Source: a virus
Taxonomy: Duplodnaviria; Caudoviricetes
Reading direction: 5' to 3' (one strand)
Length of the DNA: 64,000 nucleotides
Virus record (IMG/VR): IMGVR_UViG_3300048893_000042
Span: 1 to 64,000 of that record
Shown: one piece after another, positions 11,557-56,013 of the stretch
Numbering within the stretch: the first letter of the stretch is position 1
Layout of the letters: each line of letters begins with the position of its first letter
Program-made: the position numbers and the translations under genes
The notes under the pieces: model-generated
Databases searched by the model: none
Told to the model about the DNA's origin: nothing
The model's input: only the letters and a program-made list of their open reading frames with translations

Positions 11557-11605
11557 ACAACCCTACAGACCAGCCCCAGACCCTTGGCTCCTCCGTGGCC
11601 GGAGC
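11557..11605 (-). repeat. dispersed intergenic motif, copy 1
   Basis: Plus strand ACAACCCTACA-GACCAGC-CCCAGACCCT-TGGCTCC-TCCGTGGCC-GGAGC; matches 51298-51344 and 55965-56013. Confidence 0.7.
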
Positions 11606-11614
11606 CAGTCAGGT

Positions 11615-11953
11615 TCACCGCTTCCCGAGCGCACCCTTCATGATCTGCGCCTGCTGGCCCAGCCAGGCAGCACTTGACGGGTCGGCTCTCAGCCTGGCGA
11701 TGCCCGCTGCGGTGTTGCAACCGACTGTCACCCCCGCAGCGACATAGTTGCCCACCTTCGGGATCAAGCGGGTCATCCCCGCGAGGGGGAGGGCCTCGGC
11801 ACAGCCGGCATTCACCGCCGCGTCGATGCTGCTGATCCTACCCATCACCCCCGCCACCTGGGCATCAGTGGCTGGCGTCACGGGGTCGCTGCCTGTGCAT
11901 GCGGCCAGTGCAAGGGCAGAGGCCAGCGCGAGAGCACTTGAAGTTCGGTTCAT
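11615..11953 (-). CDS. lipoprotein (o-spanin-like candidate)
   Basis: Signal peptide with lipobox LAAC. Confidence 0.7.
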   Translation of the reverse strand: MNRTSSALALASALALAACTGSDPVTPATDAQVAGVMGRISSIDAAVNAGCAEALPLAGMTRLIPKVGNYVAAGVTVGCNTAAGIARLRADPSSAAWLGQQAQIMKGALGKR

Positions 11954-11990
11954 GACTTTTTCTACCTTTCAAGTTGATTACAAAGGTTCT

Positions 11991-12974
11991 TCAGAAGGTG
12001 ACCTTGATGCACCCATTGCCCCCCAGTGCAAAGGGTCCAGCACCACCACCTCCGCCACACTTGCCTCCCGTTCCCGCCCCACCAGCACCGCCGCTACCAT
12101 CAAATGTGGCGAAGCCACCGCCTCCACCGCCCGACCCATTCAGAGCATCAAACTCAGTGCCTGCTGCTCCAGCCCCACCATTGACGTCAGTCACCAGTCC
12201 AGTTTCACAGGCTCCACCGCCACCTGCACCGGGACTGGTTGCGCTGCCCCCATTGTTTAATGTACACCCTCCACCAGCACCACCGCCCGTGCCGCCCGGC
12301 CCATTCCCACCGCTTCCACCCGACACCCCGTCACTGCCGTTGGCACCCACGCTGCCGCCATTAGCACCGCCGCCGCCTCCACCTGTGGTAGTTCCACCGT
12401 TCGTGCCACCAGCCGCACCAACCCCCGATGGACCCCCAGCACCTCCGCCTCCTCCACCTGCACCTGGGGCAGGGCTTCCCGATCCAGCGCCGCCTGCCCC
12501 ACCAGCATTCTTGGTGGTGCCGACACTTGTCGAACCACTGCCGCCACCCTTGGCGCAGACCGAGGCCCCAGCACAGGTTGTGCCGTTGAACCAGGCGTCC
12601 CCTCCTGACCCAGCCGCGCCACTTCCACCCTTGCCATTCCTATATGTGTATGAGGTCCCAGCAACAACCGTGAGGTTGACAATGGCTGAGTAGGACCCAC
12701 CTGCCCCACCTGCACCTGTACCAGGAGCGATGTGGTCCCCGCTCGCGCCCGCGCCAATGGTCTCAACGTTCGTAAGGGTCGTGCACCCGGTGTTGTTCTT
12801 CCAGGTCAGGTTCGTTGAGCCGGTGCCCGTGAAGGGCAGCACCTGGGACCCGTGACCACAGGCCACAGACAGTGTGACCTTGCCTACACCCACAAGGGTG
12901 AGCTGCGCCCGTGCCTCAGCAGTGAGTGAGAAGAGCGCGAGCGCGAGTGCAATGCACCTCAGAACTGGGCCCAT
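11991..12974 (-). CDS. glycine-rich protein with Sec-type signal peptide
   Basis: LRCIALALALFSLTAEARA; GAGG-type repeats throughout. Confidence 0.75.
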   Translation of the reverse strand: MGPVLRCIALALALFSLTAEARAQLTLVGVGKVTLSVACGHGSQVLPFTGTGSTNLTWKNNTGCTTLTNVETIGAGASGDHIAPGTGAGGAGGSYSAIVNLTVVAGTSYTYRNGKGGSGAAGSGGDAWFNGTTCAGASVCAKGGGSGSTSVGTTKNAGGAGGAGSGSPAPGAGGGGGGAGGPSGVGAAGGTNGGTTTGGGGGGANGGSVGANGSDGVSGGSGGNGPGGTGGGAGGGCTLNNGGSATSPGAGGGGACETGLVTDVNGGAGAAGTEFDALNGSGGGGGGFATFDGSGGAGGAGTGGKCGGGGGAGPFALGGNGCIKVTF

Positions 12975-13759
12975 GTGATCACTCCCGACACCTGGACAGC
13001 CGCCGAGTAGAACAGACAGACATGGTTGGCATTCACGGTTGTCTTGGCGATTAGTCCTCGACCGTTCCCGTAAGCCAGACCCCCATTCGTCGGGAGTATC
13101 CAGCCCGTCGCCGCCGTCGCGCCACCAGCCAATCCAAGAGTGGACGTGTCGCAGGGGTTCGTGGTGGTTGTGCCCTCGACCAAGGCAAGGTTTTCACCCC
13201 CACCGACTGGTCCTATGTTGATCGCACATATGTAAATCTTCTGAGCGGTCACGCCAGTGATGATCTTCTGCGCCGTCGCTGACCCGGCATTGTTGATCGG
13301 CGTGGTGAACGTGTTGGCTGCGGTGGCACCGTTACACCCCGTGTCATCAATGATGTGACCAACAACTGCTGACCCAGCCACCAGACCAACCGTGCCACCG
13401 GTCTGCTGCATGGGTGTTCCAAGTGCCGTCAGGATTGACGTGGCCCTTTGGGCTATGCGCTGGAGCAGGGCATTGAGGCTGCAGGACCCGTTGTCAGTCG
13501 CACAAGCAGTCGCACCGGGTGGTCCGATGTCCGTGTTCGTGGTGCCAACCGTCGTGTCCAGGGCCAGCGCCGAGGTGTTCAAGTTGGTGCCAGCGTTGGC
13601 CGTGACACTGCCCCCGCTCGCCTGCATCGGAGTGCCGAGTGCAGCAGCAATGGCATTCAGCGCCGCAAGAACGTTGGTGTACCCCGTAGCACTCCAAGCA
13701 GCACCAGCAACAGACAGTACCAGGGCAGCCGCGAGAAGCAGGCGTCTCATTGTTTTCAT
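12959..13759 (-). CDS. Ala/Thr-rich protein with signal peptide
   Basis: MKTMRRLLLAAALVLSVAGAAWSA; internal repeat ALGTPMQ..GG.V; beta-rich C-terminal domain. Confidence 0.75.
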   Translation of the reverse strand: MKTMRRLLLAAALVLSVAGAAWSATGYTNVLAALNAIAAALGTPMQASGGSVTANAGTNLNTSALALDTTVGTTNTDIGPPGATACATDNGSCSLNALLQRIAQRATSILTALGTPMQQTGGTVGLVAGSAVVGHIIDDTGCNGATAANTFTTPINNAGSATAQKIITGVTAQKIYICAINIGPVGGGENLALVEGTTTTNPCDTSTLGLAGGATAATGWILPTNGGLAYGNGRGLIAKTTVNANHVCLFYSAAVQVSGVITWAQF

Positions 13760-13765
13760 GCCTCC

Positions 13766-14191
13766 TCAGAGCAGGATCAGGGTCAGGGTGCGGTCAGCTA
13801 CTTGGTTGACCGGGACGCTACTGGTGCCCGACCTCACCTTCATCTTGCTCACCCCCAGGAAGGTGGACGGGTCCACCCGGACGTACTGAGATGCTGACAC
13901 CGTCAGCAGAAGCTCATCCCCACCTCCGTCATAGAACTCCAGCCAGGTCACTCCGCCATCGACACTGACCTGAAAGGTGAGACCCGCTGTTGTCCAGGCA
14001 GCCGACATGCCGACGCCCACCAGGCTCTTGCTGCTCCCAAAGTCCACCGAGGCGGACAGCGAAGACCCACTCGCGATCAGCACGCTCTGTGACTGTGCAT
14101 CAGGAGTCATCTTGAGGGTGTGGACCCCCTCCACCTCATCGGTGGCGAGGCGCACACCCGGTGACCCCAGGTGGATGCTCGATGAGGTCAT
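13766..14191 (-). CDS. putative virion structural beta-sandwich protein
   Basis: IASGSSLSASVD..LVGVGMSAAWTTAGLTFQVSVDGG pattern seen in phage late regions. Confidence 0.6.
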   Translation of the reverse strand: MTSSSIHLGSPGVRLATDEVEGVHTLKMTPDAQSQSVLIASGSSLSASVDFGSSKSLVGVGMSAAWTTAGLTFQVSVDGGVTWLEFYDGGGDELLLTVSASQYVRVDPSTFLGVSKMKVRSGTSSVPVNQVADRTLTLILL

Positions 14192-15505: not shown

Positions 15506-15649
15506 CTATCCTGTGATGACGAAGACTGAGACGTTCGTCGCTGGGGTTGGGTTGGTTAGGTTGAAGTCCACTGCGTTGCCCGCCGGTGGGGTGTAGGACC
15601 CTGACGCGTTGAAGTCCACTGCGTTGCCCGCCGGTGGGGTGTACGTCAC
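15506..15649 (-). CDS. 47-aa protein with two YTPPAGNAVDFN repeats
   Basis: Manual translation MTYTPPAGNAVDFNASGSYTPPAGNAVDFNLTNPTPATNVSVFVITG; GTGA overlap; DNA direct repeat. Confidence 0.7.
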   Translation of the reverse strand: MTYTPPAGNAVDFNASGSYTPPAGNAVDFNLTNPTPATNVSVFVITG

Positions 15650-19755: not shown

Positions 19756-20223
19756 CTAGATGGGGTCACTGCCAATTGGGCTGATGCCAATCGGGCCGCC
19801 ATCATCATCCTCAGTCACAACCGTCCCGGTCGGGAAGGTGCTGGTGTTGACCACCCTGGATGGTCTCAAGGCCCCATCCGCAGGAGAAGCAGACACCTCG
19901 GTCCCGGTCGGGAAGGTGCTGGTGTTGACCACCCGTGACGGCTCTATGGCGCCATCGGGCGGTGACTCAGACACCTCGGTCCCGGTCGGGAAGGTGCTGG
20001 TGTTGACCACCCGTGACGGGAGGATGTCGAGGTCCGCGCCCGTCGTTATCCTGTGGTGCCCAAACGTGCTCAGGTTGATCACCCGGGTCAGGGTGATGGT
20101 TCCGTCAGCCTCGATCCTCGTTCCCCTGGGGAACACCGACCTGTTCGCAAACGTTCTCGGCGCCAGGTCAGTGGGGTCCAGTACAGGCTTGACCTGAGGA
20201 ACTATGGTGAAGTGGAGGGGCAA
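19756..20223 (-). CDS. tail-region protein with 26-aa repeats
   Basis: PSRVVNTSTFPTGT three times plus degenerate copies. Confidence 0.7.
   Translation of the reverse strand: MPLHFTIVPQVKPVLDPTDLAPRTFANRSVFPRGTRIEADGTITLTRVINLSTFGHHRITTGADLDILPSRVVNTSTFPTGTEVSESPPDGAIEPSRVVNTSTFPTGTEVSASPADGALRPSRVVNTSTFPTGTVVTEDDDGGPIGISPIGSDPI
19823..20012. repeat. three copies of a 34-bp repeat, period 78 bp (coding)
   Basis: GTCCCGGTCGGGAAGGTGCTGGTGTTGACCACCC at 19823, 19901 and 19979. Confidence 0.9.
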
Positions 20224-40187: not shown

Positions 40188-40189
40188 CA

Positions 40190-41188: not shown

Positions 41189-41710
41189 ATGATTTCAAGC
41201 ACTTACGACAGGCTCAGTGCACCAGCGAGGCTCTACCTCACCTCAAGCCTGGGTATTAGAAAGACGGCACGCAATATCGAATTCAATAACCTCAAGCCGG
41301 TGTCGGCGATGGTGGAGGAGGCGCACCTCGACCAGGTGGACATCGCCCTCATGCTCCTTCGCGCGAACTACCTCAGCGATGTCGAGCTGCTGGTGGGGCA
41401 CGCGGTCACGGTGTGCCCGCCCGGCGAGGCCAGGGGCCTCAGGGCTGAGACCCTCCAGGACCGTGCCGACTGGCTCGATGACTGGCTGCGCCGGCACCCT
41501 GACCCCTGGGAGATCGACAACTGGAGGGTCGTCCACCGTGCTCCCGACCCGCCGCCCAACGCCAACTCTGAGCAGGCCGCAGCCCACCGCCTGGTGCGCA
41601 TCGGCTACACCGTGCGGCAGCTGATCGTGCGTGGCTTCACCTATGAGGACATCGAGGTGTCGCAGCGCCACAGCTGGATGCGCCTCGCCCCGCAGCAGGT
41701 GCCGGCATGA
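41189..41710 (+). CDS. hypothetical protein
   Basis: RBS GGAGGG before ATG 41189; C-terminal G.TVRQL..RG.T..DI...W pattern. Confidence 0.65.
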   Translation: MISSTYDRLSAPARLYLTSSLGIRKTARNIEFNNLKPVSAMVEEAHLDQVDIALMLLRANYLSDVELLVGHAVTVCPPGEARGLRAETLQDRADWLDDWLRRHPDPWEIDNWRVVHRAPDPPPNANSEQAAAHRLVRIGYTVRQLIVRGFTYEDIEVSQRHSWMRLAPQQVPA

Positions 41711-42120
41711 TCACCCTCATTCCCGGACACATGTACAAGGTCCGCAGCTACCCCGCCCGCGAGGTGGATGGTCCTTTCCGCTTCCACGCCACCAATCCCA
41801 TCATCTTCCGCCACCGGGTCGGTGACGAGTACCCTGGCAACAGGGGTGACCCGTTCGACGGCACCACGACGCAGGAGCTGCTGCGTGTGATCATCGCCCG
41901 CACGAAGTACGTGGACCAGCAGCAGCCGGACCCGGCGAACGGCACCGTTCTGGGATGTGCCCGCGCAGCCATCGCTGCCCTGGAGACACGCGCTGCGCAG
42001 CGCCGGGGTCCAGGCTACCTCGCACTGTTCCGGCAGGAGCTCGCCCTCTGGGAGCTGGACATCGAGGACGCCGCACCGTGCACCACCTGCGGGCACATCT
42101 TCTGCGGGAGGCACAAGTGA
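41707..42120 (+). CDS. Tad1/Acb2-like helical-hairpin protein (candidate immune-signal sponge)
   Basis: G-x5-LL-x5-R-x12-N-x3-L-x5-A-x6-R-x3-R pattern (DGTTTQELLRVIIARTK...ANGTVL.....AIAALETRAAQR). Confidence 0.55.
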   Translation: MITLIPGHMYKVRSYPAREVDGPFRFHATNPIIFRHRVGDEYPGNRGDPFDGTTTQELLRVIIARTKYVDQQQPDPANGTVLGCARAAIAALETRAAQRRGPGYLALFRQELALWELDIEDAAPCTTCGHIFCGRHK

Positions 42121-43166
42121 GCGGCAGGGCGCACCCCCTCAAGCACCACCGTGAGACGATGCAGTGGCTCAAGGACTACGGTGCGACGGACGTCAGGTTC
42201 GACCCGACGCATGACCACCCGCGCCTCACGTACCACTTCCGGGGCACCTCGCGCACCCTGTCGCTCGCGCGCACCCCATCAGACGTCAACCACATGCGGG
42301 TGCTGAAGCGCCGGCTGCGTGCCGAGCTGGGTGACCCCGTCACCCGGCACCCCAGGGACAGGAGGAAGCTGGCCGACATGGATCCACAGGTCACCCCAGG
42401 CATCACTCATGACCACAACGGGTCGGTCGCCTACTACAACAACGGCAGCCTGCGGTTCTTCCCACCGGATGACTTCTTCGAGGTGGGCACGTCGGTGAGC
42501 ATCGAGCACCTGGGTCGTGACGCCCGGGGCATCGTCTGGGCTGTGCGGTCCGTCAAGACCCCAGCACCCGGCGAGAAGGCACCCACGGTGCGGCCTGATG
42601 GCTCAGCCAAGACGTTCGAGAAGCACCTGTCGGCCATGCACTCTGGCCTCGCGCTCGGTCTGGAGAAGCCCACGGGTCGCTCCCCGGCTGTGTGGGTGCA
42701 GGCAGACCCCACCACGTGGATGGTGCACTTCGACCCGGCCAACCGGCAGGTCGGCCCAAACATGGGTTCATCCGTCGCCCGCCGCAAGCCACCGCCACCA
42801 CAGCCGGCCCACCAGCCGGCACCAGCACCTGCCAACTGGGCTCATGGACCGGTCCACATCCCAAATGTCGGACCGTACCATCCAGGCAACCCCAGGCACT
42901 GCGTGAAGTGCGGGAAGGTCGGGAACTGGCATATGACGGAACTGTGCCCGGGGGAACCACCACCCCAGCACCCGGTATTCGGTGATCACTACGTCGCCAG
43001 CGAGGTCATCTCACGCCTGGGTGCCGAGGACGCGATGGAGTTCTGCCTGGACCTCATCGCCGACCTGGAGGCCCTGGGCACCCACCACCTGATCCTCGAC
43101 AAGGCCACCCGCGAGCGGGCCTTCAGCCCGGTCGGGAAGGTCATCCGCCGGAGGCCACGGGCATGA
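42117..43166 (+). CDS. multidomain protein with N-terminal HicA-like domain
   Basis: GTG start overlapping the upstream stop; HPRLTYHF...LSLARTPSD....LKRRL; Pro-rich linker; CVKC..H..C. Confidence 0.55.
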   Translation: MSGRAHPLKHHRETMQWLKDYGATDVRFDPTHDHPRLTYHFRGTSRTLSLARTPSDVNHMRVLKRRLRAELGDPVTRHPRDRRKLADMDPQVTPGITHDHNGSVAYYNNGSLRFFPPDDFFEVGTSVSIEHLGRDARGIVWAVRSVKTPAPGEKAPTVRPDGSAKTFEKHLSAMHSGLALGLEKPTGRSPAVWVQADPTTWMVHFDPANRQVGPNMGSSVARRKPPPPQPAHQPAPAPANWAHGPVHIPNVGPYHPGNPRHCVKCGKVGNWHMTELCPGEPPPQHPVFGDHYVASEVISRLGAEDAMEFCLDLIADLEALGTHHLILDKATRERAFSPVGKVIRRRPRA

Positions 43167-43333
43167 CACTGGAGCAGGTGCGCTGTGCCATGGCCAAGAC
43201 CGCCCGCGACCCCAGCCGGCCGCAGCTGGCTCAGGGGCTGGACCTGCGCACCGACCGCTGCCAGGCCTACCTCAGCGTCCTCAGGCACAGCACACGCTGC
43301 TGGGACGAGTTCCACATCGACAGGTGGAAGTGA
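43163..43333 (+). CDS. 56-aa hypothetical protein
   Basis: Manual translation; ATGA and TGATG overlaps. Confidence 0.5.
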   Translation: MTLEQVRCAMAKTARDPSRPQLAQGLDLRTDRCQAYLSVLRHSTRCWDEFHIDRWK

Positions 43334-43698
43334 TGAGGCGCTGCTGGGAGGTGGTGCGGGCGCTGCTGCTCGCCCACGAGCACCCACCCTTCAGGCCGGC
43401 GGACGTGGCCCGCAGCCTTGAGCTGCCGGAGCAGCTGGTCAAGGAGAACATGCTCATGCTCGATGGCTCCGGCCTCGTGGAGCCCAACCTGCTGCTAACC
43501 ACGTCTGAGGGTGGAAGCCGCGAGCCGGTGGAGGCCTTCGGCACCCTGACGTGGCGAGGCATGGAGCTGCTGGACATAATCCGCCATCCCACCCACTGGG
43601 AGCGCGTCGTCCAGGCCTCACTCCACCACGGGGTGCCCCTCACCGAGGAGACCATCAGGCTGATCGCCCACAGCTCATTCATGAGGAGGCTCGATTGA
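43333..43698 (+). CDS. DUF2513-like winged-helix protein
   Basis: MRRCWEVVRALLL...LTWRGMELLDIIR....W. Confidence 0.7.
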   Translation: MRRCWEVVRALLLAHEHPPFRPADVARSLELPEQLVKENMLMLDGSGLVEPNLLLTTSEGGSREPVEAFGTLTWRGMELLDIIRHPTHWERVVQASLHHGVPLTEETIRLIAHSSFMRRLD

Positions 43699-43934
43699 GA
43701 GGTGCCCCACCCGGTCGCCCACGCGGTGGCGCAGCGTTCCTGTGCCCCGCCTGCCTCACCACGTCGCAGGTCGCTGAGACGCGCCGCATGGAGGGTGGTG
43801 TGACGGTCCGCCGCCGCCGCGTGTGCATCAACGGTCACTCGTTCTGGACCCAGGAGGACTGCCTGGAACCCCAGGTCGGCATCACAGCCCCGTGGCTCCA
43901 GGCCGCGCGCTCGGGCAGCAGGTCACCACCATGA
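43695..43934 (+). CDS. NrdR-like zinc-ribbon protein
   Basis: CPAC...SQVAETR...GVTVRRRRVCINGHSFWTQE; TTG after GAGGAGG. Confidence 0.7.
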   Translation: MRGAPPGRPRGGAAFLCPACLTTSQVAETRRMEGGVTVRRRRVCINGHSFWTQEDCLEPQVGITAPWLQAARSGSRSPP

Positions 43935-44107
43935 GCCGCTTCATGGCCTGGTACATCTTCTGGTCCATCGCCTTTGGTGTGATGGCCGAGTACAAGCTGC
44001 TCCACCCCGACAGCACCCCACTGCGGAGCATCGCTGCCGGGGTCGTCTGGCCCGTGGGCGCAGGCTTCCTCCTGGAGCACCACATCTACCACACACTCAG
44101 CAAGTAG
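43931..44107 (+). CDS. small membrane protein
   Basis: Two hydrophobic segments. Confidence 0.6.
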   Translation: MSRFMAWYIFWSIAFGVMAEYKLLHPDSTPLRSIAAGVVWPVGAGFLLEHHIYHTLSK

Positions 44108-44121
44108 GGAGAGCTGTCGAG

Positions 44122-44361
44122 ATGTCACCCAAGGTCGCAGCCGGTGCCGGTGCAGCCGGCGCATCGTCACCCCTGTCCATCATCGTCATCTGGCTGATTG
44201 GCCTGACCCACGTCACCCTGCCGCCAGAGGTGGCCGTGGCCATCGGGTCGCTGGTGGCCGCCGGGGCCTCGCTGCTGGCAGGCTACCTGGTGCCCCATGA
44301 CCCAACCACCGCTCGCCTGATCGCTGAGGATGCAGCCAAGAATGGCCAGGGCAATGTTTGA
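44122..44361 (+). CDS. two-TM holin-like membrane protein
   Basis: KVAAG..AG....IIVIWL....LPPEVAVAI..L......GYLVP. Confidence 0.55.
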   Translation: MSPKVAAGAGAAGASSPLSIIVIWLIGLTHVTLPPEVAVAIGSLVAAGASLLAGYLVPHDPTTARLIAEDAAKNGQGNV

Positions 44362-45307
44362 GACCACAACCATCGACACTGAGACCACGGGCATGGAGCC
44401 TCATGACGTGGTCATCGAGATGGCCGCAGTCCGCCGTGACTGGCACTACCACTTCATGGTCAACCCGGGTGACGTGCCCGTGGTCCCTGAGGCCCGGGCG
44501 GCACACCACATCACCGATGCTGAGCTGGCCGTCTGTGCCACCGCAGAGGTGTGGCTGCCGACCGTCATGGAGCTGACCGGCAGGCCAGACCATGTGCTAG
44601 TGTTCCACAACGCGGAGTTCGACACCCGCATGATCCAGCAGACCTGGCCGCAGATCGGTGGCGCACCACACATCTGCACCTACCGCTGCTCGCTCCAGCT
44701 CTGGCCCGACGCACCCAGCCACTCGAACCAGGTGCTGCGCTACTGGCTGAGCCTCCACGTGGAGAAGACCCGCCTCCACCCACACCGCGCCCTGCCCGAC
44801 GCCCTGGTGACTCACGCCCTCGTGATGCGCATGATCGAGGACCTAGTGTATGGGCGGAACGAGCACGTCCGGCTGCCCGATCTCCCAGCGGAGGAGCTGC
44901 GGGACGCGGCCATAGAACGCCTCGTGCACCTTACCACAGCCCCGGTCGTCCTCCACCGCGTCCGCTTCGGGAAGCACCAGGGTCTGCTCTGGAAGGATGT
45001 GCCCCGCGACTACCTCCAGTGGATCATCCGCCAGGCGGACTTCGACCGTGACGTGCTCCACACAGCCCGCACCCTGATTGGCAGCCCCCCGGCCACGCCA
45101 GCGGGGGAGCACGCATGGCTGGGTCAGCGGTTCTGCCTGGTCATGAACCTGGAACAGGATGGGTTCGGGTCCGAGCTGGGTGACTACACCGCCCACCAGG
45201 GTCAGGTCGTCACCGTCACCCGCGAGCTGCCCGACAGCATGGTGGCTGTGCAGGCCTCAGACGGCTGGGTGGGCAACGTGTTCAAGAATGAGCTGAGGGC
45301 GCCATGA
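44354..45307 (+). CDS. DEDDh 3'-5' exonuclease (ExoX-like) with DUF3820-like domain
   Basis: IDTETTG, HNAEFD, HRALPDA; FGKHQG..WKDVPRDYLQW. Confidence 0.85.
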   Translation: MFETTTIDTETTGMEPHDVVIEMAAVRRDWHYHFMVNPGDVPVVPEARAAHHITDAELAVCATAEVWLPTVMELTGRPDHVLVFHNAEFDTRMIQQTWPQIGGAPHICTYRCSLQLWPDAPSHSNQVLRYWLSLHVEKTRLHPHRALPDALVTHALVMRMIEDLVYGRNEHVRLPDLPAEELRDAAIERLVHLTTAPVVLHRVRFGKHQGLLWKDVPRDYLQWIIRQADFDRDVLHTARTLIGSPPATPAGEHAWLGQRFCLVMNLEQDGFGSELGDYTAHQGQVVTVTRELPDSMVAVQASDGWVGNVFKNELRAP

Positions 45308-45561
45308 AGATGACCCCCTGGTGGCATGCCCTGCGGCCCTCGGTCACGCCCAATCAGAAGCGCAGCCGTATGCTCAAGATCGTGCTGGACAACGTCGCGC
45401 GAGGTCACCCATCAGGTCGCCACAGCGCCCTCGGTCACACCCTGCCGTACCTCATCTGCGGCCTGGAGGAGCGGAAGGTGCCGTACCAGATCAATGCGAT
45501 GCCTGGCGTGGGGTACACGATCCAGGGCATGCCGCCGCTTGTTCCTCAGGAAGATGAGTGA
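45304..45561 (+). CDS. hypothetical protein
   Basis: ATGA overlap with the exonuclease. Confidence 0.55.
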   Translation: MKMTPWWHALRPSVTPNQKRSRMLKIVLDNVARGHPSGRHSALGHTLPYLICGLEERKVPYQINAMPGVGYTIQGMPPLVPQEDE

Positions 45562-45661
45562 TCTACTTTGTCCATGAGAACTCGTCAGGTATATCCTCAA
45601 GTAATTCCACGCACCGGGGTGCACGGCATGCCCATCACTTGGGGATATTCTGGTCCAAGAC

Positions 45662-45781
45662 ACCCAGTTCTTCCCATTACTTGACCATGAATACTGAATA
45701 ACCCCAAGTTTCACTAGGAACCAAGGTCACCTGCACTACCCTGCATGAGTTTGTGCCACCGTGCTCCTCCGCCAGCGGAGG
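45662..45781 (+). repeat. 120-bp element A (inverted partner of 63281-63400)
   Basis: 90/120 ungapped identities to the reverse complement of 63281-63400 (hand count). Confidence 0.85.
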
Positions 45782-45803
45782 GGACGTATGATGGAGATCA
45801 CCC

Positions 45804-45965
45804 TTGAAGCGATTGCCTGAGGCAGTGTTCATCATCTGTGCCTTCGTCTACCTGGTGCTGACCGATGACGGCAGCAGCTGGTCGAGAGGCTACCTGTGGG
45901 GCAGCGCCCAGCCAACGCACAGGCCCCTGATCGTTGTCATTGCTGAACGTCTGGAGAGGAAGTGA
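45804..45965 (+). CDS. 53-aa membrane protein
   Basis: Manual translation MKRLPEAVFIICAFVYLVLT...; TTG start. Confidence 0.5.
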   Translation: MKRLPEAVFIICAFVYLVLTDDGSSWSRGYLWGSAQPTHRPLIVVIAERLERK

Positions 45966-46126
45966 TGCTGCGTGTCATTGTCCTGATCCTGCTGCTGCTC
46001 GTGCTGGCCGCACTCATCAATGAGGAGGGGCAGGTTGAGCTGTGTGCGAAGGCCACACTCATGACCTGGCGGCAGTGCTTCAATGATCGCCACCCGGCGC
46101 TCCGTGTCACCACACCAGAGGACTGA
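45965..46126 (+). CDS. 53-aa membrane/secreted protein
   Basis: MLRVIVLILLLLVLAALIN...; TGATG overlap. Confidence 0.55.
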   Translation: MLRVIVLILLLLVLAALINEEGQVELCAKATLMTWRQCFNDRHPALRVTTPED

Positions 46127-46132
46127 GACATC

Positions 46133-46378
46133 ATGAGGAAGGTCACACGATACCCCCTGCCGGCCACGGCGGGTCGCTTCACCATCGTCACGCCCGGGGG
46201 TGCCCAGTTCATCGGCATCACCGCCCAGAGCATCCACGCGCTCGCCGACACCAGCCGGCCTGAGGTACCACGCACCCTGCTGCTCGTGGACACGGAGCAG
46301 AACATCCCAGGCCGCAGCCGGCTGGCCCACATCGGCACCTCTGGAAATCGCCACCTGTTCGAGGAGAACCCAAGGTGA
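46133..46378 (+). CDS. hypothetical protein
   Basis: Tiled plus-strand ORF. Confidence 0.55.
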   Translation: MRKVTRYPLPATAGRFTIVTPGGAQFIGITAQSIHALADTSRPEVPRTLLLVDTEQNIPGRSRLAHIGTSGNRHLFEENPR

Positions 46379-46722
46379 GCATGCGCCCGATCAGCCCGCT
46401 GGACATCTCAGGGGACCAGCGCAGCACCGACCTGCCCGACCGGGTGATTGAGGTGTGGAACCGCCTGATCGCACAGAACCACAACGGCACCATGTCCACC
46501 GTGCTCCAGGTGGACGCGGTGGCCGCGATGCGTGACCTGGTGCCTCCTGACTTCCCGCGCTCGGCGGCAGCCTTCATGATCGAGCAGGGCTGGCTGGACA
46601 TCGAGCCGGTCTACCGCGCCCAGGGGTGGGAGGTCACCTACCACAAGCCTGCTGCCGAGGAGCACCCGGCGCGCTTCACGTTCTATGGCTCAGCGAGGAA
46701 GAAGCATGAAGAAGGCAGATGA
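46375..46722 (+). CDS. conserved phage hypothetical protein
   Basis: PDRVIEVWNRLI...GWLDIEPVYRAQGWEV.Y.KP. Confidence 0.7.
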   Translation: MSMRPISPLDISGDQRSTDLPDRVIEVWNRLIAQNHNGTMSTVLQVDAVAAMRDLVPPDFPRSAAAFMIEQGWLDIEPVYRAQGWEVTYHKPAAEEHPARFTFYGSARKKHEEGR

Positions 46723-47137
46723 TGACCTGAGGGCCATCTTCCACGAGCACCTGCACCAGGTCCACTGGCAGGCCATCGAGAGTGGCCTGACCGGCCTCGG
46801 AATCCCCGACAGCAACGGGTGCCTCCACCGTGAGTTCTGGGTGGAGCACAAGTGGACCCCCGAGTGGTGGGTGTCCCTGACCCCTGAGCAGGTGGGCTGG
46901 CACCTTCGCCGCTACCGGGCAGGTGGCCACACGTTCATCGCGGTGCGGCGCCACTGTGATGCGGGTCCACGCCGGCCCGCTGCCGATGACCTGTACCTCT
47001 TCCCCGGGCGGCTCGCCCGCGAGCTGAAGGACGTGGGCCTGCGGTTGGACGCACCTCCCCTGGTGATGTCCACCGGTGGGCCTGCGGCCTGGGACTGGTC
47101 TGCGGTGCTCGGTGTGCTGACCGGCAGGCCGGCATGA
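46706..47137 (+). CDS. PD-(D/E)XK nuclease, Holliday-junction resolvase/VRR-NUC-like
   Basis: GIPD...C...FWVEHK...LTPEQVGW..R..AGG..FIAV. Confidence 0.75.
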   Translation: MKKADDDLRAIFHEHLHQVHWQAIESGLTGLGIPDSNGCLHREFWVEHKWTPEWWVSLTPEQVGWHLRRYRAGGHTFIAVRRHCDAGPRRPAADDLYLFPGRLARELKDVGLRLDAPPLVMSTGGPAAWDWSAVLGVLTGRPA

Positions 47138-47358
47138 TTGACCTGCGGTCATCCCAGGTCGTGGTCCGCAGCCGCCAGACCATGGAGCCGGCCTTCGTGC
47201 TGCAGTTCTATGGCGTGCCATCGCTGGCCTTCATCGAGGTGCCGGACCGACGCGGCCATCGTCCGCCACAGACCGGCGGCAGGCTCATCCAGCAGGCCCT
47301 CCGTGAGCACGGCCTGCACCCGGATGACTGGATCGCCAGCATCTTTGAGTGCTATTGA
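47134..47358 (+). CDS. hypothetical protein
   Basis: ATGA overlap with the nuclease. Confidence 0.5.
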   Translation: MIDLRSSQVVVRSRQTMEPAFVLQFYGVPSLAFIEVPDRRGHRPPQTGGRLIQQALREHGLHPDDWIASIFECY

Positions 47359-47412
47359 CTTTGCCTCTGGCCGGGCACATGCTCGCCAGCACAGGAGCAG
47401 GGAGTGCATGTC

Positions 47413-47787
47413 ATGATGTTGCGAGCTAGCTGGCGCCATGCGGCCCCCTGCCTCCTCCTGCTGACCGCGAGCTGCGGCCCAGCCGGCCCACTGATCATCG
47501 CCGGCATCTCAGCCGCCAAGTCTGGGTATGACCTCGCGAAGGAGGTCAGCCAGGTCGTGGACCCGGTGATCGAGAAGGCCTGTGCGGTGTATGAGTCACG
47601 CAAGGCCACGGCGCTCGCCCGCATCGCGCTCGGTGCGGCCAGACCGGCGGCAGGCCCCCGCGTCATGGCCATGGTCCGCATGGCAGACGCCGCATGCGTG
47701 GCACCACCCCAGGGTGGTAGCCCACTGGAGACAGCCATGTGGGTGGTCGGGGTCGCCGGCCAGGTGGAGGCGGAGGCGCGGCCATGA
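47413..47787 (+). CDS. putative lipoprotein
   Basis: LLLLTASC lipobox-like motif. Confidence 0.6.
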   Translation: MMLRASWRHAAPCLLLLTASCGPAGPLIIAGISAAKSGYDLAKEVSQVVDPVIEKACAVYESRKATALARIALGAARPAAGPRVMAMVRMADAACVAPPQGGSPLETAMWVVGVAGQVEAEARP

Positions 47788-47984
47788 GGGTGCCCCTGAT
47801 CTGCCTCGTCTGGACCCTCTGGCTCATCGTGTGCATCTGGGGGTTCGAGGACATCGTCAAAGGTGACCCGAGCTATGACACCGCTGTCAAGAACGTCAAG
47901 TTCTGGGGTGGCCTGCTCGTGTTCACCTGCCCGATCTACATGGCCTGGTTCCTCACTGCCGCCATACTGAGGTGGGTGCCATGA
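47784..47984 (+). CDS. small two-TM membrane protein
   Basis: Hydrophobic segments; ATGA overlaps. Confidence 0.6.
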   Translation: MRVPLICLVWTLWLIVCIWGFEDIVKGDPSYDTAVKNVKFWGGLLVFTCPIYMAWFLTAAILRWVP

Positions 47985-48388
47985 CCTGGCAGGACATCAC
48001 TCTGATGGTTCTGAACGGGGTGTTCTGCGTGTCGCTGATGCCGACCATCTGGGGTGGCAGCAAGCCTCCACTCAGCACCAGCCTCACCACAGGCCCAGCC
48101 CTCATCACAGTGGCCGCCGTCTACACTACCCTGGGCCTGTGGGGTGCGGCAGCGGTCCAGCTCGCGGTCGGTGTGCAGTGGCTCATCCTCGCGTGGCAGC
48201 GCCACCAGATGCAGGATGAGCTGCAGCGCGCCCAGGTCTTCCTCGACATGTTCCCATGCTACCACTCGGTCCGCCGGGCCTCGTGCTGGTACTTCCAGCG
48301 TGGCAGGTGCCGCTGCCAGGACATCGTGGAGCACAACGCGCGCCAGGCCATAGACCGGGCACTGGTGTGGGATGAGAGCGATGCCTGA
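47981..48388 (+). CDS. membrane protein (three TM segments plus Cys-containing tail)
   Basis: WQD....N.VF.VSL.PTI...KPPL.TS pattern. Confidence 0.6.
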   Translation: MTWQDITLMVLNGVFCVSLMPTIWGGSKPPLSTSLTTGPALITVAAVYTTLGLWGAAAVQLAVGVQWLILAWQRHQMQDELQRAQVFLDMFPCYHSVRRASCWYFQRGRCRCQDIVEHNARQAIDRALVWDESDA

Positions 48389-48593
48389 GCGCTGTGAAGG
48401 CTGCCCAGACCCCATCCTGCCAGGCCAGGCCCGCTACACCGGTGGTGAGGGTGCTGACCCACCGAAGTACTGGCACTGGGAGTGCCATGAGCGCTTCCTC
48501 GCCGACTGCCGCAAGGCACTGCACGACATCCCGGGCCTCGCGGAAAGGGCCCAGCAGATCATCAGGAGGCTGCAGCATGGCAAGCGTGACTGA
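48372..48593 (+). CDS. small zinc-binding-like protein
   Basis: CEGC...HWEC. Confidence 0.55.
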   Translation: MRAMPERCEGCPDPILPGQARYTGGEGADPPKYWHWECHERFLADCRKALHDIPGLAERAQQIIRRLQHGKRD

Positions 48594-48837
48594 GGATGTG
48601 GCCAAGACCCGCTGGTGCCCATTCACCCGGGTCATCGCCGGCACACTGGATGGGAAGGGCGGCATGGACTGCAAGCCCCACCAGGCACCCTGGAACCGCA
48701 TCCAGACCGGTGGGGAGAACTTCAACCTGCCGACCGGCACCCAGTGCGTCGGCAGCCTCTGCATGGCCTGGAAGTGGATCAGCGACGGCGCGGACCCCAG
48801 CACCAAGCATGGTGACTGCCGGCTGATGACCAGATGA
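48577..48837 (+). CDS. conserved Cys-containing phage protein
   Basis: TEDVAKTRWCPF...CVGSLCMAW.W...G.C. Confidence 0.7.
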   Translation: MASVTEDVAKTRWCPFTRVIAGTLDGKGGMDCKPHQAPWNRIQTGGENFNLPTGTQCVGSLCMAWKWISDGADPSTKHGDCRLMTR

Positions 48838-49091
48838 GCCGCCCGCAGATCACGAAGGCCATGCGGTCTGCCCTGCTGTGGCTGCGACGCCGCAACGGTG
48901 ACGGTGGGTTCGACACCAATGGGGTGCTCGTGGCCGCCGGTGAGAAGGCTCCAGTGATGCGGGCCACCTGGAACCACCTGGTGGGAGCCGGCCTGGTGCG
49001 TGAGTACCAGGGCAGGAAGCGCCTGGGCGTCACCGAGGCTGGGTCCAGGTTTGACCTCACAGGGGTCACTGAGTCAGGAGACGAGTGTTGA
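48834..49091 (+). CDS. hypothetical protein (possible winged helix)
   Basis: ATGA overlap; TW..LV.AGLV....RL.VTEAG. Confidence 0.55.
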   Translation: MSRPQITKAMRSALLWLRRRNGDGGFDTNGVLVAAGEKAPVMRATWNHLVGAGLVREYQGRKRLGVTEAGSRFDLTGVTESGDEC

Positions 49092-50152
49092 CCCAGTCCG
49101 TCGTCTTCGTCACCCCAGGCCTGATCGACATCCGGGCCTTCACCACCTTCGGGGTCAACGCCAAGCCGCTCACCTCCAGCCCCATTGGCTTCTTCGGCAC
49201 CGGCCTGAAGTACGCCATCGCGGTGTTGGTGCGGGCGGGTGCCTCCCCGGTGCTGTGGATCGGTCGCGACAGGTACGAGTTCTCACAGCATGCCACCCAG
49301 TTCCGTGACCGCGAGTTCTCCATGGTGAGGATGCGGCGCCAGAGGTGGAACCTGCTGCGGGCCTCGAACCATGACCTGCCCTTCACCACCGAGCTGGGGA
49401 AGAACTGGAAGATGTGGATGGCCTACCGCGAGCTGGAGGCCAACACCCGGGACGAGGGTGGCGAGACACACGTGGTGGAGGGCACCTGGATGGACGTGGA
49501 CGGGGGGCACACGGTCCTCCAGGTCGCGAACGATGAGTTCGTCCAGGCACACCTCGACAGGGACCAGACGTTCCTGCCCGGAGGCCTCACTCTCCGTGAG
49601 GAGGACGCGAGGCTCCAGGTTCTGGACCGTCCTGCCAAGCACCTGTACTACCGTGGCCTCCGCGTGGCGGACCTGGAGAAGCCCACGCTCCACAGCTACA
49701 ACTTCCTGGGCGCGCTGGAGCTGACCGAGGACCGCACCCTCAAGTACGAGTTCCTGGCGCGCTCGGAGGTGGCCCGGCACATCGCGACGTGCCATGATGA
49801 GGCCCTGATCGAGGAGGTGCTGACCGCGCCCGACAGCCGGTGGGAGCATGGCCTGGACTTTGACTTCCAGCACGAGGCCCCGAGTGACGAGTTCTCGGCA
49901 GTCATCGAGCGGCGCAGGGGCATGGTGTCGAGGTCCGCCCTGAGGTACTACAGCGGCTGGGCCATGTCCACGGGTCGCGCACCCCCGGCGGGCACGTTCA
50001 CCCTCCACCCCAGGCCCTGGCGTGCGTCCGGCTCCTATGCCTTTGACGCCTCTGACCAGATGGTGCTGTCGGCCAGCGGCACGGCACCCCGGCCTGACCA
50101 GCTGATGACAGACGTTGTTGACGCGGTGAATGGAGCGGGTGATGGATCGTGA
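49085..50152 (+). CDS. GHKL-type ATPase, apparently circularly permuted
   Basis: IGFFGTGLKYA at aa 34-44 precedes the N-box-like RELEANTRDE at aa 115-124. Confidence 0.65.
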   Translation: MLTQSVVFVTPGLIDIRAFTTFGVNAKPLTSSPIGFFGTGLKYAIAVLVRAGASPVLWIGRDRYEFSQHATQFRDREFSMVRMRRQRWNLLRASNHDLPFTTELGKNWKMWMAYRELEANTRDEGGETHVVEGTWMDVDGGHTVLQVANDEFVQAHLDRDQTFLPGGLTLREEDARLQVLDRPAKHLYYRGLRVADLEKPTLHSYNFLGALELTEDRTLKYEFLARSEVARHIATCHDEALIEEVLTAPDSRWEHGLDFDFQHEAPSDEFSAVIERRRGMVSRSALRYYSGWAMSTGRAPPAGTFTLHPRPWRASGSYAFDASDQMVLSASGTAPRPDQLMTDVVDAVNGAGDGS

Positions 50153-50504
50153 GATGACTGAGTTCCTGGACGGCGTGGTGGGTGTCGTGGAGGCCAACTC
50201 GTTCGAGCAGCACATGCTCTGGAGTGAGAACCGGCAGCGCACCCACCCACGGACGTGGGAGCAGCTGAACCCGGGCCTCCTGGAGACGGTTGGCGTGCTT
50301 GACGGCAGGCCCGTGTGCGTCAGCCTCCACAAGGTCAGGGTTGGCGGTCACCTGATCCTGTTCGTGGATGCCACCAGTCAGGTCGTGGACCACGAGATGA
50401 TCGCGAGGTGGATGGCGGACACCATGCCAAGGTCGGCACTTCGAGAAAATGGCATCGTCAACCGCACCGACGCTATGAACTTCCACAACGTCTTTCCTCG
50501 TTGA
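50130..50504 (+). CDS. hypothetical protein
   Basis: Tiled ORF; exact start uncertain. Confidence 0.6.
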   Translation: MERVMDREMTEFLDGVVGVVEANSFEQHMLWSENRQRTHPRTWEQLNPGLLETVGVLDGRPVCVSLHKVRVGGHLILFVDATSQVVDHEMIARWMADTMPRSALRENGIVNRTDAMNFHNVFPR

Positions 50505-50529
50505 CCTTCGTCACCAGGCAGGGTAGAAG
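50501..50529 (+). promoter_or_regulatory. putative sigma70 promoter TTGACC-17-TAGAAG
   Basis: Exact 17-nt spacing; upstream of GGAGGA and ATG 50556. Confidence 0.5.
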
Positions 50530-50555
50530 GTGGGTGTCACCAACTGGAGGACACC

Positions 50556-50801
50556 ATGAGGGCCACCATCACCAGCAAGAACGACGAACTCCACCCCGAC
50601 ACCGCCGAGCAGATCGAACCCGGCGAGGAGGTGCTGTACTACAAGGACTACAAGAAGTCAGGCGAGGATGACATACTGCTCACCCGCAAGGCGAACGGGG
50701 CCATCGAACTCTGGGTCAACGGGTGCGTCGTCTACAGCGAGGCGGGTGACGCAGAACTCACCGAGGCGGAGCGCCAGAGGAACGGCGCGGCCCACCACTA
50801 G
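50556..50801 (+). CDS. hypothetical protein
   Basis: RBS GGAGG; last plus-strand gene before the convergence point. Confidence 0.6.
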   Translation: MRATITSKNDELHPDTAEQIEPGEEVLYYKDYKKSGEDDILLTRKANGAIELWVNGCVVYSEAGDAELTEAERQRNGAAHH

Positions 50802-51253: not shown

Positions 51254-51297
51254 AGGCCTGCTCCCGTGCCGCTCCGCATGGCGGTCCTCCGTCGTGC

Positions 51298-51344
51298 ACT
51301 ACCCTGCATCACACCCCTGAACTCGTGGCTCCTCCGTGGGGAGC
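51298..51344 (-). repeat. dispersed intergenic motif, copy 2
   Basis: Plus strand ACTACCCTGCA-TCACACC-CCTGAACTCG-TGGCTCC-TCCGTGG-GGAGC. Confidence 0.75.
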
Positions 51345-51408: not shown

Positions 51409-51951
51409 TTACGCGGCGGGTTCGGGCTGTGCCGTGGTCTCCGGGTTCTGCAGGTCCAGGCCGATGGCGCGTGCCGTGTGGTCGGTGGAGATGTCCACCA
51501 GCCCGTCGAAGACCGTCAGCCCGGCGCTGTCCTTGACCTCGAACGCGAGGCCCGTGGCCTCGCGGACCAGGGGCTGCATCTCCACCGCCGGCGAACCATC
51601 GGCCATCGTGCTGACGGAGACGGTCCAGCTGGTGGTGTCGGGGCTGCTGACGGTGAACGTGTCGCCGGTCGGTGCCGACACGACGTTGCCGTCCGCGTCC
51701 TTTGCCAGGATGCGGTACTTGGTGACCTCGGTGTTTTTGAGTGCGATGTTGGTCAAGAGTGTTCCTCCTTCGGTGCAGCGCTCGGGCACCTCCAGCCAGA
51801 GGCTGGTGGGCTCCGAGCACCCGGGCTCAATGTTCGTGAGGTAATCCTCGATGCGCTGCAGCTCCACCAGTATGGACTGGAGCATGCGGCGGCGGACCCA
51901 GCGGCTCATCCGCTCCCAGCTGGGCCGAAGCGGGTGCGTCTCAGGCAGCAT
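51409..51951 (-). CDS. protein with C-terminal Ig-like beta domain; nested in-frame TTG start at 51756
   Basis: Two RBS-preceded starts (GGGAGG-ATG 51951; GGAGGA-TTG 51756); alternating hydrophobic beta pattern. Confidence 0.6.
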   Translation of the reverse strand: MLPETHPLRPSWERMSRWVRRRMLQSILVELQRIEDYLTNIEPGCSEPTSLWLEVPERCTEGGTLLTNIALKNTEVTKYRILAKDADGNVVSAPTGDTFTVSSPDTTSWTVSVSTMADGSPAVEMQPLVREATGLAFEVKDSAGLTVFDGLVDISTDHTARAIGLDLQNPETTAQPEPAA

Positions 51952-52198
51952 GGCTCGCCCTCCCAAACCCAATGACGTCATCCAGGGTCAGTTCGGGTCC
52001 CTGGTCCTCAGGCCGCACCTTCCAGCCCTCGACTACAATGACATCGGGTGCGAACGGGGTGACCCGGAAGAATGTGGCACCCAGGCGTTCCAGCTCGTGC
52101 GACATGTCGCGCACTGCTGCCGTGCAGCTCTGGGCGTCCACACCTAGGACGCGGTGGGACACCCAGTCAGCTGGCTGGGGCACCGGGCGGACGCCCAT
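51941..52198 (-). CDS. hypothetical protein
   Basis: Tiled ORF; EGWKVRP.DQG motif. Confidence 0.5.
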   Translation of the reverse strand: MGVRPVPQPADWVSHRVLGVDAQSCTAAVRDMSHELERLGATFFRVTPFAPDVIVVEGWKVRPEDQGPELTLDDVIGFGRASHAA

Positions 52199-53708: not shown

Positions 53709-53732
53709 TGATCACCTCGGATGACAGTATAA

Positions 53733-54029: not shown

Positions 54030-54302
54030 CGCCGGCTCCTACAGCTTCGGCTGGGATGACGCCTGCGGCTGTGCTTGAGCAGCCGTCGCCACAGCTCACA
54101 GGCACCCATCGAGGGTGCTGCTGCGGTGGTCTTCCTCTTGAACAACTGGCACATGTGACTCACCACCTTGGTGGGGACTCAGCTGGGTCAGTCTGGACAA
54201 CCCCCACCCCTGCGTCTTAGGGTGGGGGTGCCGTCCCATCTGTCTCTCATCTCGCGTAGCTGGCATGGGCCGGACCCATGGGCCAGGGTCGATGATGGCG
54301 CA

Positions 54303-54812: not shown

Positions 54813-54831
54813 GTAGTCATCCTCCTTGCTG

Positions 54832-54860
54832 ATAATAGGGTCGGCCAGAAGCATAGTAAA
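54832..54860 (-). promoter_or_regulatory. sigma70 promoter TTTACT-17-TATTAT
   Basis: AGTAAA 54855-54860 and ATAATA 54832-54837 on plus; RBS and ATG 54812 follow. Confidence 0.65.
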
Positions 54861-54895
54861 GCCCCTGGTCCATGGGAAGTTAGGCATGCGTCGTC

Positions 54896-55261
54896 TCACT
54901 CTTCCGTCACAACAACCTTGGCCGGCAGCTTCCCCAATTCTTCGGGGTGGTCCGACCTCATGCTCCACATGGCCAGTTCTACTGCCCTGACCCAGTCCCT
55001 GGCCATGCTCAGGTGCCGGATCACCTCTCCGCTCTGGGTCGTGGTCCTTGTGGTGAAGTTCCTTGACCGTCCCACCGGCTCGTGGCGGTGGACCGGTGTG
55101 GCACCACTCAGTTCCTTCCTCAGCTTCTCCAGCTGGGCATCCGCCACCGCTCGGCTGGAGAAGTCCGACCGGTGGTGGCGGGCCCAGGCAGCCACGCCCT
55201 TGTCATGGGCCTCAGCCGCCAGCTGGTTGAACAGTTCGGTCAGCTCATGGACCGTCGCCAT
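54896..55261 (-). CDS. protein with the same ~50-aa helical domain at its N-terminus
   Basis: TVHELTELFNQL..EA...GV.AW.RHH.SDFSSR. Confidence 0.7.
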   Translation of the reverse strand: MATVHELTELFNQLAAEAHDKGVAAWARHHRSDFSSRAVADAQLEKLRKELSGATPVHRHEPVGRSRNFTTRTTTQSGEVIRHLSMARDWVRAVELAMWSMRSDHPEELGKLPAKVVVTEE

Positions 55262-55487
55262 GGATGGCCTCCTTGGCCTCGCGCTTGCCCCGGCGGACCA
55301 CCTGGGCCACGATGGTGCCGAAGAGGACCAGGGGCCAGAACGGCACCGCCGACCCGCACATGACGCGGTCCCAGAAGTGGTCCGCGTTGGGGCACCGGGG
55401 CTGGTAGTCGCGCAGGCCCCGGTAGGTGCCGAGGGCACCCGCGAGGTAGAACGAATCCAGGATGATGTGCAGGGCAGTCTGGTTCAT
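55245..55487 (-). CDS. small membrane protein
   Basis: Two hydrophobic segments; CGSAVPFWPL. Confidence 0.6.
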   Translation of the reverse strand: MNQTALHIILDSFYLAGALGTYRGLRDYQPRCPNADHFWDRVMCGSAVPFWPLVLFGTIVAQVVRRGKREAKEAIHGDGP

Positions 55488-55735
55488 CTCATCAACTCCG
55501 CCTTGTGGTGGCCCCGCAGGACCAGGAGCACGGCCCAGCTGTCCGTCGTGAGGCCCCTGCGGTGCTCGTTGGGCTGTGCCATGGTTGCTTCCCGCCGTGC
55601 GGCAGCTATGGCTGACCTCATGTCAGGAGCCTCTATGCAGTTGGCCCAGTAGCACTGACCCGCCGCATCGAGGTCAAGTTCCATCTGCTCGGTCAACCAG
55701 GTGGGGTATCGCAGGAGCACCGACCACTCACTCAT
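55484..55735 (-). CDS. hypothetical protein
   Basis: WSVLLRYP...EAPD..SAI.AA...VLLVL.GHH. Confidence 0.6.
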   Translation of the reverse strand: MSEWSVLLRYPTWLTEQMELDLDAAGQCYWANCIEAPDMRSAIAAARREATMAQPNEHRRGLTTDSWAVLLVLRGHHKAELMR

Positions 55736-55907
55736 GATGCCGCACCGGTGCCATGGAGATGAGTGTGTGGTCATCCTTGGCCAGCCTCACCTCGCAGTCC
55801 TCGTACTGGGTCATGACGCGGTCAAGACCCCTGGCAGCGTCGTCAGTGCTGTGGAACTCGGCCACGTACTTCACCACGCCGTCCTTCTGTGCTGTGATCG
55901 TCACCAT
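55728..55907 (-). CDS. 59-aa hypothetical protein
   Basis: Manual translation MVTITAQKDGVVKYVAEF...; RBS GGAG. Confidence 0.5.
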   Translation of the reverse strand: MVTITAQKDGVVKYVAEFHSTDDAARGLDRVMTQYEDCEVRLAKDDHTLISMAPVRHHE

Positions 55908-55951
55908 GTTGGCTCACTCCTCCAGGTCCGGTGCCGCCGTCCGCGCTCGGG

Positions 55952-56013
55952 AGGGTCCAGCTGTACTACCCTACAGCTGGACCCTGAACCCGTGGCTCCT
56001 GCGACACCGGAGC
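55952..56013 (-). repeat. dispersed intergenic motif, copy 3, with a perfect 14-bp stem
   Basis: AGGGTCCAGCTGTA-CTACCC-TACAGCTGGACCCT (55952-55985), then GCTCC-9-GGAGC (55995-56013). Confidence 0.8.

Follow-up and report, generated by a model that had tools for sequence, protein, structure and literature searches.

The first 64,000 nt of IMG/VR record IMGVR_UViG_3300048893_000042 (77,381 bp), referred to here as the window, belong to an uncultured soil siphovirus-like phage and contain an intergenic repeat of ~50 bases. Three minus-strand copies are present at 11554-11605, 51295-51344 and 55962-56013 (copies 1, 3 and 4), all of which feature a GCTCC..GGAGCCA hairpin (hairpin 1), and together they are termed type-A copies. 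Each ends in a 14-bp box, TGYA-GGGTWG-TRYR, which is also found within both members of an inverted pair of twin elements; all five boxes are intergenic. As it stands, the repeat appears to be a lineage-specific regulatory repeat with five sites.

The phage genome

The genome has a G+C content of 64% with an intergenic share of 8.6%, and its genes lie on the minus strand nearly throughout, the exception being a plus-strand block at 41114-50801. It carries a lambda-type large terminase, portal, protease and tape-measure genes, an endolysin gene, DNA polymerase A (63496-65679) and genes for thymidine hypermodification; no tRNAs were found in the phage. One open reading frame (ORF) for a pyridoxal phosphate (PLP)-type (fold-II) enzyme on the minus strand spans the record end at 77381 and continues without overlap into window positions 1-359; because this ORF crosses the end-to-start join, the 'linear' record is a circularly closed, complete genome. 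The only sequencing run found to contain it comes from a soil metagenome. There is no close cultured phage, the top large-terminase match being 39% identical, and megablast with 7 kb against a phage collection returned no match.

The type-A copies

The sequence-only reading that preceded this analysis placed three copies after stop codons of minus-strand genes, and they are found there: the stops at 11615, 51409 and 56032 each precede a copy, and a repeat finder groups the three as one direct-repeat family (D5; 42 nt, 69-79% identity). Copy 1 comes after the stop of a lipoprotein-like gene (11615-11953) and consists of GCTCC at 11605-11601, GGAGC at 11591-11587 within GGAGCCA at 11591-11585, and the box TGTAGGGTTGTGTG at 11567-11554; downstream lie a second hairpin (GGAGGAA..TTCCTCC) and then a membrane-protein ORF starting near 11513. 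Copy 3, near the end of a minus-strand operon, follows both the stop of gene 51409-51981 and a strong GC hairpin that is separate from the unit; it has GCTCC at 51344-51340, GGAGCCA at 51332-51326 and the box TGCAGGGTAGTGCA at 51308-51295, with GGAGGA 4 nt past the box. Copy 4 lies between the stop of a gene for a 362-aa protein (56032-57120) and a ribosome-binding site (RBS) with ATG at 55907; its GCTCC is at 56013-56009, its GGAGCCA at 55999-55993 and its box TGTAGGGTAGTACA at 55975-55962, the last sitting within a perfect palindrome with 13-bp arms (55984-55953) that extends the feature to 55953-56013. The box starts exactly 24 nt past the start of GGAGCCA in all three copies and ends 4 to 38 nt ahead of a GGAGG RBS.

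The family was examined by a sequence profile (nhmmer) instead of a covariance model, because MAFFT left hairpin 1 out of register. When profiles were trained on any two copies and run over ~260 kb, the omitted copy was each time the top non-training match (E values of 1.2e-4, 7.8e-4 and 0.43); no further full copies were found in the genome.

Two other features border these copies. Copy 1 lies just downstream of three successive genes past the lysis region (11615-13759, minus strand) with signal-peptide or lipoprotein-like N-termini; one of the three is very glycine-rich (11991-12974), and none has a PHROG match. A small hairpin, GGCAGCAC-N4-GCTGCA, directly precedes the RBS of two genes, one of them the 362-aa gene (57130-57160 and 60375-60400, minus strand); two relatives keep it ahead of their orthologue of the 362-aa gene (L011, 9975-10000; L099, 9959-9972), and it may be a translational operator.

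The 14-bp box and the twin elements

The twin elements form an inverted repeat (I1) of 118 nt, 76% complementary, and head convergent accessory operons. The sequence-only reading had placed versions of the motif inside them, and the box is indeed present in both. On the minus strand, twin element 1 carries, within 45732-45781, a hairpin CCTCCG..CGGAGG (45781-45766), a 20-nt spacer and the box TGCAGGGTAGTGCA at 45745-45732, which is the layout of a type-A copy; its box is antisense to the plus-strand operon headed by the element (45804 onward). Twin element 2 carries, within 63281-63330 on the minus strand, the box TGCAGGATAGTGCA at 63330-63317, followed by an RBS-containing hairpin at 63296-63281. 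In the frame of the twins the flanks (C-box-T) are kept and the central 6-mer is flipped, CTACCC versus GGATAG; owing to this flip between inverted elements, all five intergenic sites have the centre GG(G/A)T(A/T)G on the minus strand. Four of the five are sense to local transcription. The 77-kb genome has four occurrences of the dyad frame TGYA-N6-TRCA (3.5 expected by chance), each of them a box in an intergenic position.

The minus-strand core therefore stands for the intergenic sites, as had been claimed, but not as a rule for the genome: an exact 12-mer, GCAGGGTAGTGC, is found on the plus strand at 77263 within the PLP-enzyme coding region (chance expectation ~0.02, estimated by hand from base composition), so that five of the six exact or near-exact box copies are on one strand. 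Two core-only sites are possible but weak. TAGGGTAG (40378-40385, minus strand), which has another GGGTAG beginning 18 nt upstream of it, lies ~110 nt ahead of the gene for the small terminase (39675-40271) with a hand-estimated chance expectation of ~8%; CAGGGTAG (50519-50526, plus strand) has the sense orientation of the plus-strand genes and precedes the ATG at 50556 by 30 nt. Both are suggestive rather than significant.

The constant strand raises the question of a DNA signal that is independent of transcription direction, such as a site-specific nick site of the kind present in T5, phiKMV-like and tf-like phages, or a priming/replication or packaging signal on one virion strand. In tf-like and phiKMV-like Pseudomonas phages, nick-associated motifs are likewise short, confined to one strand, present in few to ~14 copies per genome and clustered in one part of the genome (PMC3517423, PMC11780129), and the inverted twins, in which the 6-bp centre alone is flipped, are in line with such a role. 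The known motifs differ in that 88% of those in tf-like phages lie within genes (PMC3517423, PMC11780129), whereas the boxes here are all intergenic; the box is also unrelated in sequence to the nick consensuses TACTRTGMC and CGAC-N5-CCTACTCCGG. With one exact copy on the opposite strand, five sites carrying little statistical weight and no nickase recognised, a strand-specific signal is considered improbable, and it is equally doubtful that the box is read on one physical strand in this hypermodified-thymidine phage, with selection having flipped the 6-bp centre to keep its absolute orientation. The fixed strand of the centre in the inverted twins is nevertheless the one unusual feature of the system, and would matter more if a strand-specific DNA process were at work.

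The inverted arms around an asymmetric 6-bp spacer also recall a site-specific recombination core of the lox or dif type; as the sites are directly oriented, the intervening gene blocks could on that reading be excised. The perfect 13-bp arms around GGGTAG in copy 4, and the identical or near-identical, directly oriented centres, are what such a core would show. Arms beyond 4 bp are seen in copy 4 only, however, and a six-frame search of the whole genome found neither a tyrosine integrase (Phage_integrase) nor a serine recombinase (Resolvase); the arms-plus-recombinase combination of a tyrosine-recombinase core site (lox/FRT/dif-like) is thus not found. Contigs assembled from the source run contain no box-to-box joints and no variants at the boxes, a weak argument since contigs drop rare forms. 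A recombination core is accordingly very improbable, the least probable of the readings considered.

Upstream of each twin element (45595-45690 and 63375-63450) the word CCYCAAGTRATGGG(C/A)A and its complement CCCATYACTTGRGG occur two to three times and are essentially missing from the rest of the genome; in this place L011 has ATTACTT-N9-AAGTAAT. These words look like operators of the twin-element promoters. Downstream of the element 1 box, a minus-strand ORF at 45412-45714 was discarded, as it has no coding signature (GC3 0.58). A small-ORF reading of the box, ATG-CAG-GGT-AGT-GCA, is possible at two copies and was rejected because copy 4 has a stop (CTG-TAG).

Folding and covariation

The sequence-only reading regarded the repeat as a conserved two-hairpin fold with covarying stems; neither property is recovered. 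Folding z-scores against shuffled sequences are -1.03, +0.66, -3.98, +0.42 and +0.29 for the five sites, and only the 55.96-kb copy (copy 4), which has the 13-bp arms, is more stable than its shuffles (-3.98). Outside copy 4 the box stem is 4 bp long, and in the five aligned boxes these inner 4 bp are the sole part that is always paired. The covariation score of this alignment, 0.292 compared with 0.293 for shuffled alignments, is reached by 251 of 500 shuffles; the percentage paired equals the shuffled mean (reached by 254 of 500), and copy 4 supplies the one double-sided change among the five boxes, CG to UA. The stems of hairpin 1 are identical (GCTCC/GGAGC) in the three type-A copies and therefore hold no covariation information, while its loop length and stem register vary.

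Since the spacing from GGAGCCA to the box is fixed while loop length varies, the conserved part appears to be sequence blocks rather than pairing. One strong hairpin does occur by each type-A copy, but its place differs, being upstream of copy 3, at the box in copy 4 and downstream of copy 1; conservation is for this reason also placed in sequence and not in structure. Searches of Rfam gave no match at gathering thresholds in the whole window and nothing relevant at E<=5 in five 3-kb loci around the copies; the sequence-only reading had likewise not recognised a described family. Stable folding in most copies and covariation above controls, the properties of a conserved structured RNA, are both lacking.

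These results bear directly on an RNA element carried by minus-strand transcripts, whose two hairpins would serve for processing or stabilization or as a nut/put-like antitermination signal. The unit does lie between cistrons of long minus-strand operons, hairpin potential is present, copy 4 combines its compensatory change with a 13-bp stem, the copy 1 box pairs solely via G-U wobbles on the minus-strand RNA, and neighbouring intergenic regions likewise have a hairpin followed by an RBS. Because the fold is neither conserved nor stable and covariation is not above chance, RNA processing or stabilization and antitermination nonetheless lose support, and they are further weakened by the element 1 box being antisense to its local operon; the inconstant loop and register of hairpin 1 and the empty Rfam search also speak against them. 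An RNA element is on balance distinctly unlikely. The third mechanism offered earlier, a promoter or operator acting at the DNA level, fits better, as described below; the wider claim of a phage-specific cis element is retained in that the repeat is non-random, intergenic and absent from Rfam and from the relatives examined, with its RNA-level mechanisms set back.

Promoter and terminator signals

The box overlaps a hexamer, [T/C]AGG[G/A]T, that retains A2 and T6 of a -10 element and those only; by inspection, the position of the -35 is occupied by GCCA(C/A)G. The hexamer inside the box of twin element 2 (CAGGAT) is preceded by a -35-like ATTACA at a distance of 18 nt, ATTACA-N18-CAGGAT. A sigma-70-like promoter called by the scan at 63025-62997 (TTGACC-17-TATGGT) has at 63003 a -10 of the TAnGGT type, and a TAAGGT near 8336 was read by eye; the box hexamer TAGGGT is similar to these. 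Canonical sigma-70-like promoters were called at 63025-62997 and 54860-54832, positions that by reading look conserved with L011, and as the type-A unit is unlike them it would, if a promoter, belong to a different, factor-dependent class.

The six-frame whole-genome search found no sigma-70 region 2 or 4, no single-subunit RNA polymerase and no Mor protein; the phage must therefore be served by host RNA polymerase. Other promoter classes were considered and rejected. YuA-like phages use sigma-54 promoters, but the sigma-54 spacing (GG and GC doublets exactly 10 nt apart, TGGCAC-N5-TTGC) does not fit here: the type-A copies lack an in-register GG-N10-GC, and TGGCAC..TGCA in element 1 is one nt too long on inspection. 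For an extracytoplasmic function (ECF) or HrpL-type promoter, GGAACC-N16 in the twin elements yields no consistent -10.

In the region 62735-63030 (minus strand), a stretch of ~260 nt without an ORF extends from the promoter at 63025-62997 to the next gene; L011 has in the same place (6330-6757) TTGACG-17-TAGTAT followed by ~400 nt of non-coding sequence. The stretch has no Rfam match and may be a leader or a non-coding RNA.

Relatives and collections

The 362-aa protein upstream of copy 4 has many homologues, the closest of which (75% identical) is from L011, a relative on 78.7-kb contigs. In the 21 kb of L011 examined, neither the repeat unit nor the box is present, and the orthologous 362-aa gene is followed by a different hairpin and an RBS only; it has no homologue of the genes that follow copies 3 and 4, and around copy 4 the genes stand in a different order. 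The profile and the box are absent from two IMG/VR fragments, L011, four further relatives and 80 genome loci; the pattern GGAGCCA-N3-GT-N3-GG-N9-GYAGGGTWGT has no match in metagenome contigs, and a near-identical pattern has none in IMG/VR. A profile scan of the genome and its relatives, as had been proposed, thus recovers the omitted copies and nothing in relatives. The sequence-only reading had named a lack of conservation in relatives among the results that would count against it; no conservation is seen among the relatives available, the closest being the one with 75% identity in the flanking protein.

The leader after the polymerase genes of L011 is homologous to twin element 2, with CCCATTACTTG, GTATTACAGGGAA and TGCTCCTCCG in common and an equal total length. 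At the aligned position L011 has ATTACA-N18-TACACT together with another palindrome, CACTAGTG. Because the ATTACA-N18-hexamer layout is common to both, the box of twin element 2 is considered to occupy -10 to +1 of a probable promoter; a different palindrome in L011 is what would be expected of an operator co-varying with its regulator.

The same absences suit a relic or junction repeat of mosaic recombination, whereby the type-A copies would be paralogous leftovers of a promoter-leader segment (the 3' half of the twin elements) copied with accessory cassettes; the units might further serve as short homologies for module shuffling, without a regulatory role of their own. Read on the plus strand, the type-A copies resemble twin element 1 (box, ~18 nt, then a GCTCCTCCG hairpin), every copy lies in a variable region, as the missing homologues and rearranged order by copies 3 and 4 illustrate, and no examined relative has the motif. 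Against mere leftovers, spacing and blocks have been kept exactly despite divergence to 69-79% identity, the genome has no box frame outside the boxes, and the centre of the element 2 box has been re-oriented and not lost (5/6 match in the flipped reading; estimated chance ~0.005). A relic is for these reasons an unlikely alternative.

The homologues of the flanking protein are scattered over many phyla and are therefore uninformative about the host. A more distant relative, L100, whose version of the 362-aa protein is 62% identical, has a gene for a GcrA-family protein at 2230-2793, which hints at an alphaproteobacterial host for the L100 lineage.

Proposed function of the repeat

The unit most likely acts on DNA or transcription rather than as a folded RNA. 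The favoured reading, to which a probability of roughly 0.4 is assigned, is a control cassette in which a terminator-like hairpin stands at a fixed spacing ahead of an operator or -10-like box, and the box would control accessory gene blocks. The GC-rich hairpin GCTCC-N7-9-GGAGC just past the upstream stop would be a terminator or attenuator without a U-tract, or a 3' stabilizer; the box TGYA-GGGTAG-TRCA, 19 nt past the hairpin and present likewise in the promoter-leader region of the twin elements, would be the site of a putative phage-specific regulator, overlapping the weak -10-like hexamer of a -35-less promoter. Occupancy of the box would then decide whether transcription restarts or reads through into the downstream accessory genes. 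In its geometry the box is suited to a dimeric DNA-binding protein, the two 4-bp dyad arms being separated by one helical turn; that the unit binds a protein, acts as a promoter or terminates transcription is in each case inferred from sequence.

Several observations weigh against this cassette. The consensus promoter scan made no call at any copy and found no -35 element, the TTGACA/TATAAT pair at 16-18 nt of a sigma-70 promoter being absent from the copies. The terminator scan likewise made no call at any copy; neither hairpin 1 nor the box hairpin is followed by a U-tract, so that of the intrinsic (Rho-independent) terminator the stem-loop is present and the T-run absent, in a scan that does not cover terminators lacking a U-tract. 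No regulator was recognised: Pfam searches of ~65 proteins yielded a DUF2513 winged-helix-like protein and a Nu1-type terminase helix-turn-helix, and otherwise unrelated domains. In twin element 1 the -10-like hexamer is directed away from the operon that the element heads, a symmetric dimer leaves the conserved asymmetric centre unexplained, the sites number only five, and in L011 the unit is missing after the orthologous gene. Should the box be an operator or promoter element, the accessory gene blocks of this uncultured soil siphovirus would include a small regulon defined by it, and the box would give a handle on the regulator among many unannotated small proteins. Foremost candidates for a box-binding protein are the DUF2513 protein (43324-43698), an 85-aa protein (48834-49091) and the product of a small ORF past twin element 2 (63065-63207).

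Comparison with known phage elements

The promoter-early stem-loop (PeSL) cassettes of T4-type phages, which reportedly (Arbiol et al., 2010) carry a canonical sigma-70 early promoter, are comparable as dispersed intergenic repeats of one phage genome that combine a stem-loop with promoter-type sequence; they too are situated between accessory genes of variable regions and are tied to module shuffling. The repeat described here differs in having no -35, a weak -10-like hexamer only, and far fewer copies. The stoperators of L5 and other cluster A mycobacteriophages number some 24-30 sites, are bound by the repressor gp71 and are oriented relative to transcription on both arms. The box resembles them as a short, asymmetric, one-way site in short intergenic gaps that is also found at a promoter, as is a true operator; with its five sites, no recognised repressor and one site antisense to its operon, it departs from them.

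In cluster K mycobacteriophages, the SAS/ESAS sequences (consensus GGGATAGGAGCCC) are located 3-8 bp before start codons and include the RBS. They share with the present repeat a phage-specific, intergenic character, a position just upstream of genes, an unassigned function, GGAGCC and GGATAG-like words and an adjoining imperfect inverted repeat; here, GGAGCCA and GGGTAG are 20 nt apart and in the opposite order, and no start codon comes after GGAGCCA. The operators of phage 434 are 14 bp long (ACAA-N6-TTGT), and the box has the same length, with conserved 4-bp dyad arms around a 6-bp centre, and lies at promoters; unlike the 434 sites, its centre is conserved and asymmetric, the sites are dispersed and not grouped in threes, and no cI/Cro-like protein was found.

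Other repeats

Tandem repeats are also found inside structural genes, at 15560-15643 (a perfect 36-nt duplication 48 nt apart), 19812-20045 (three 78-nt units) and 31189-32203 (three ~360-nt units); the last lie in gene 31167-32360, which suggests that its product contains repeated domains.

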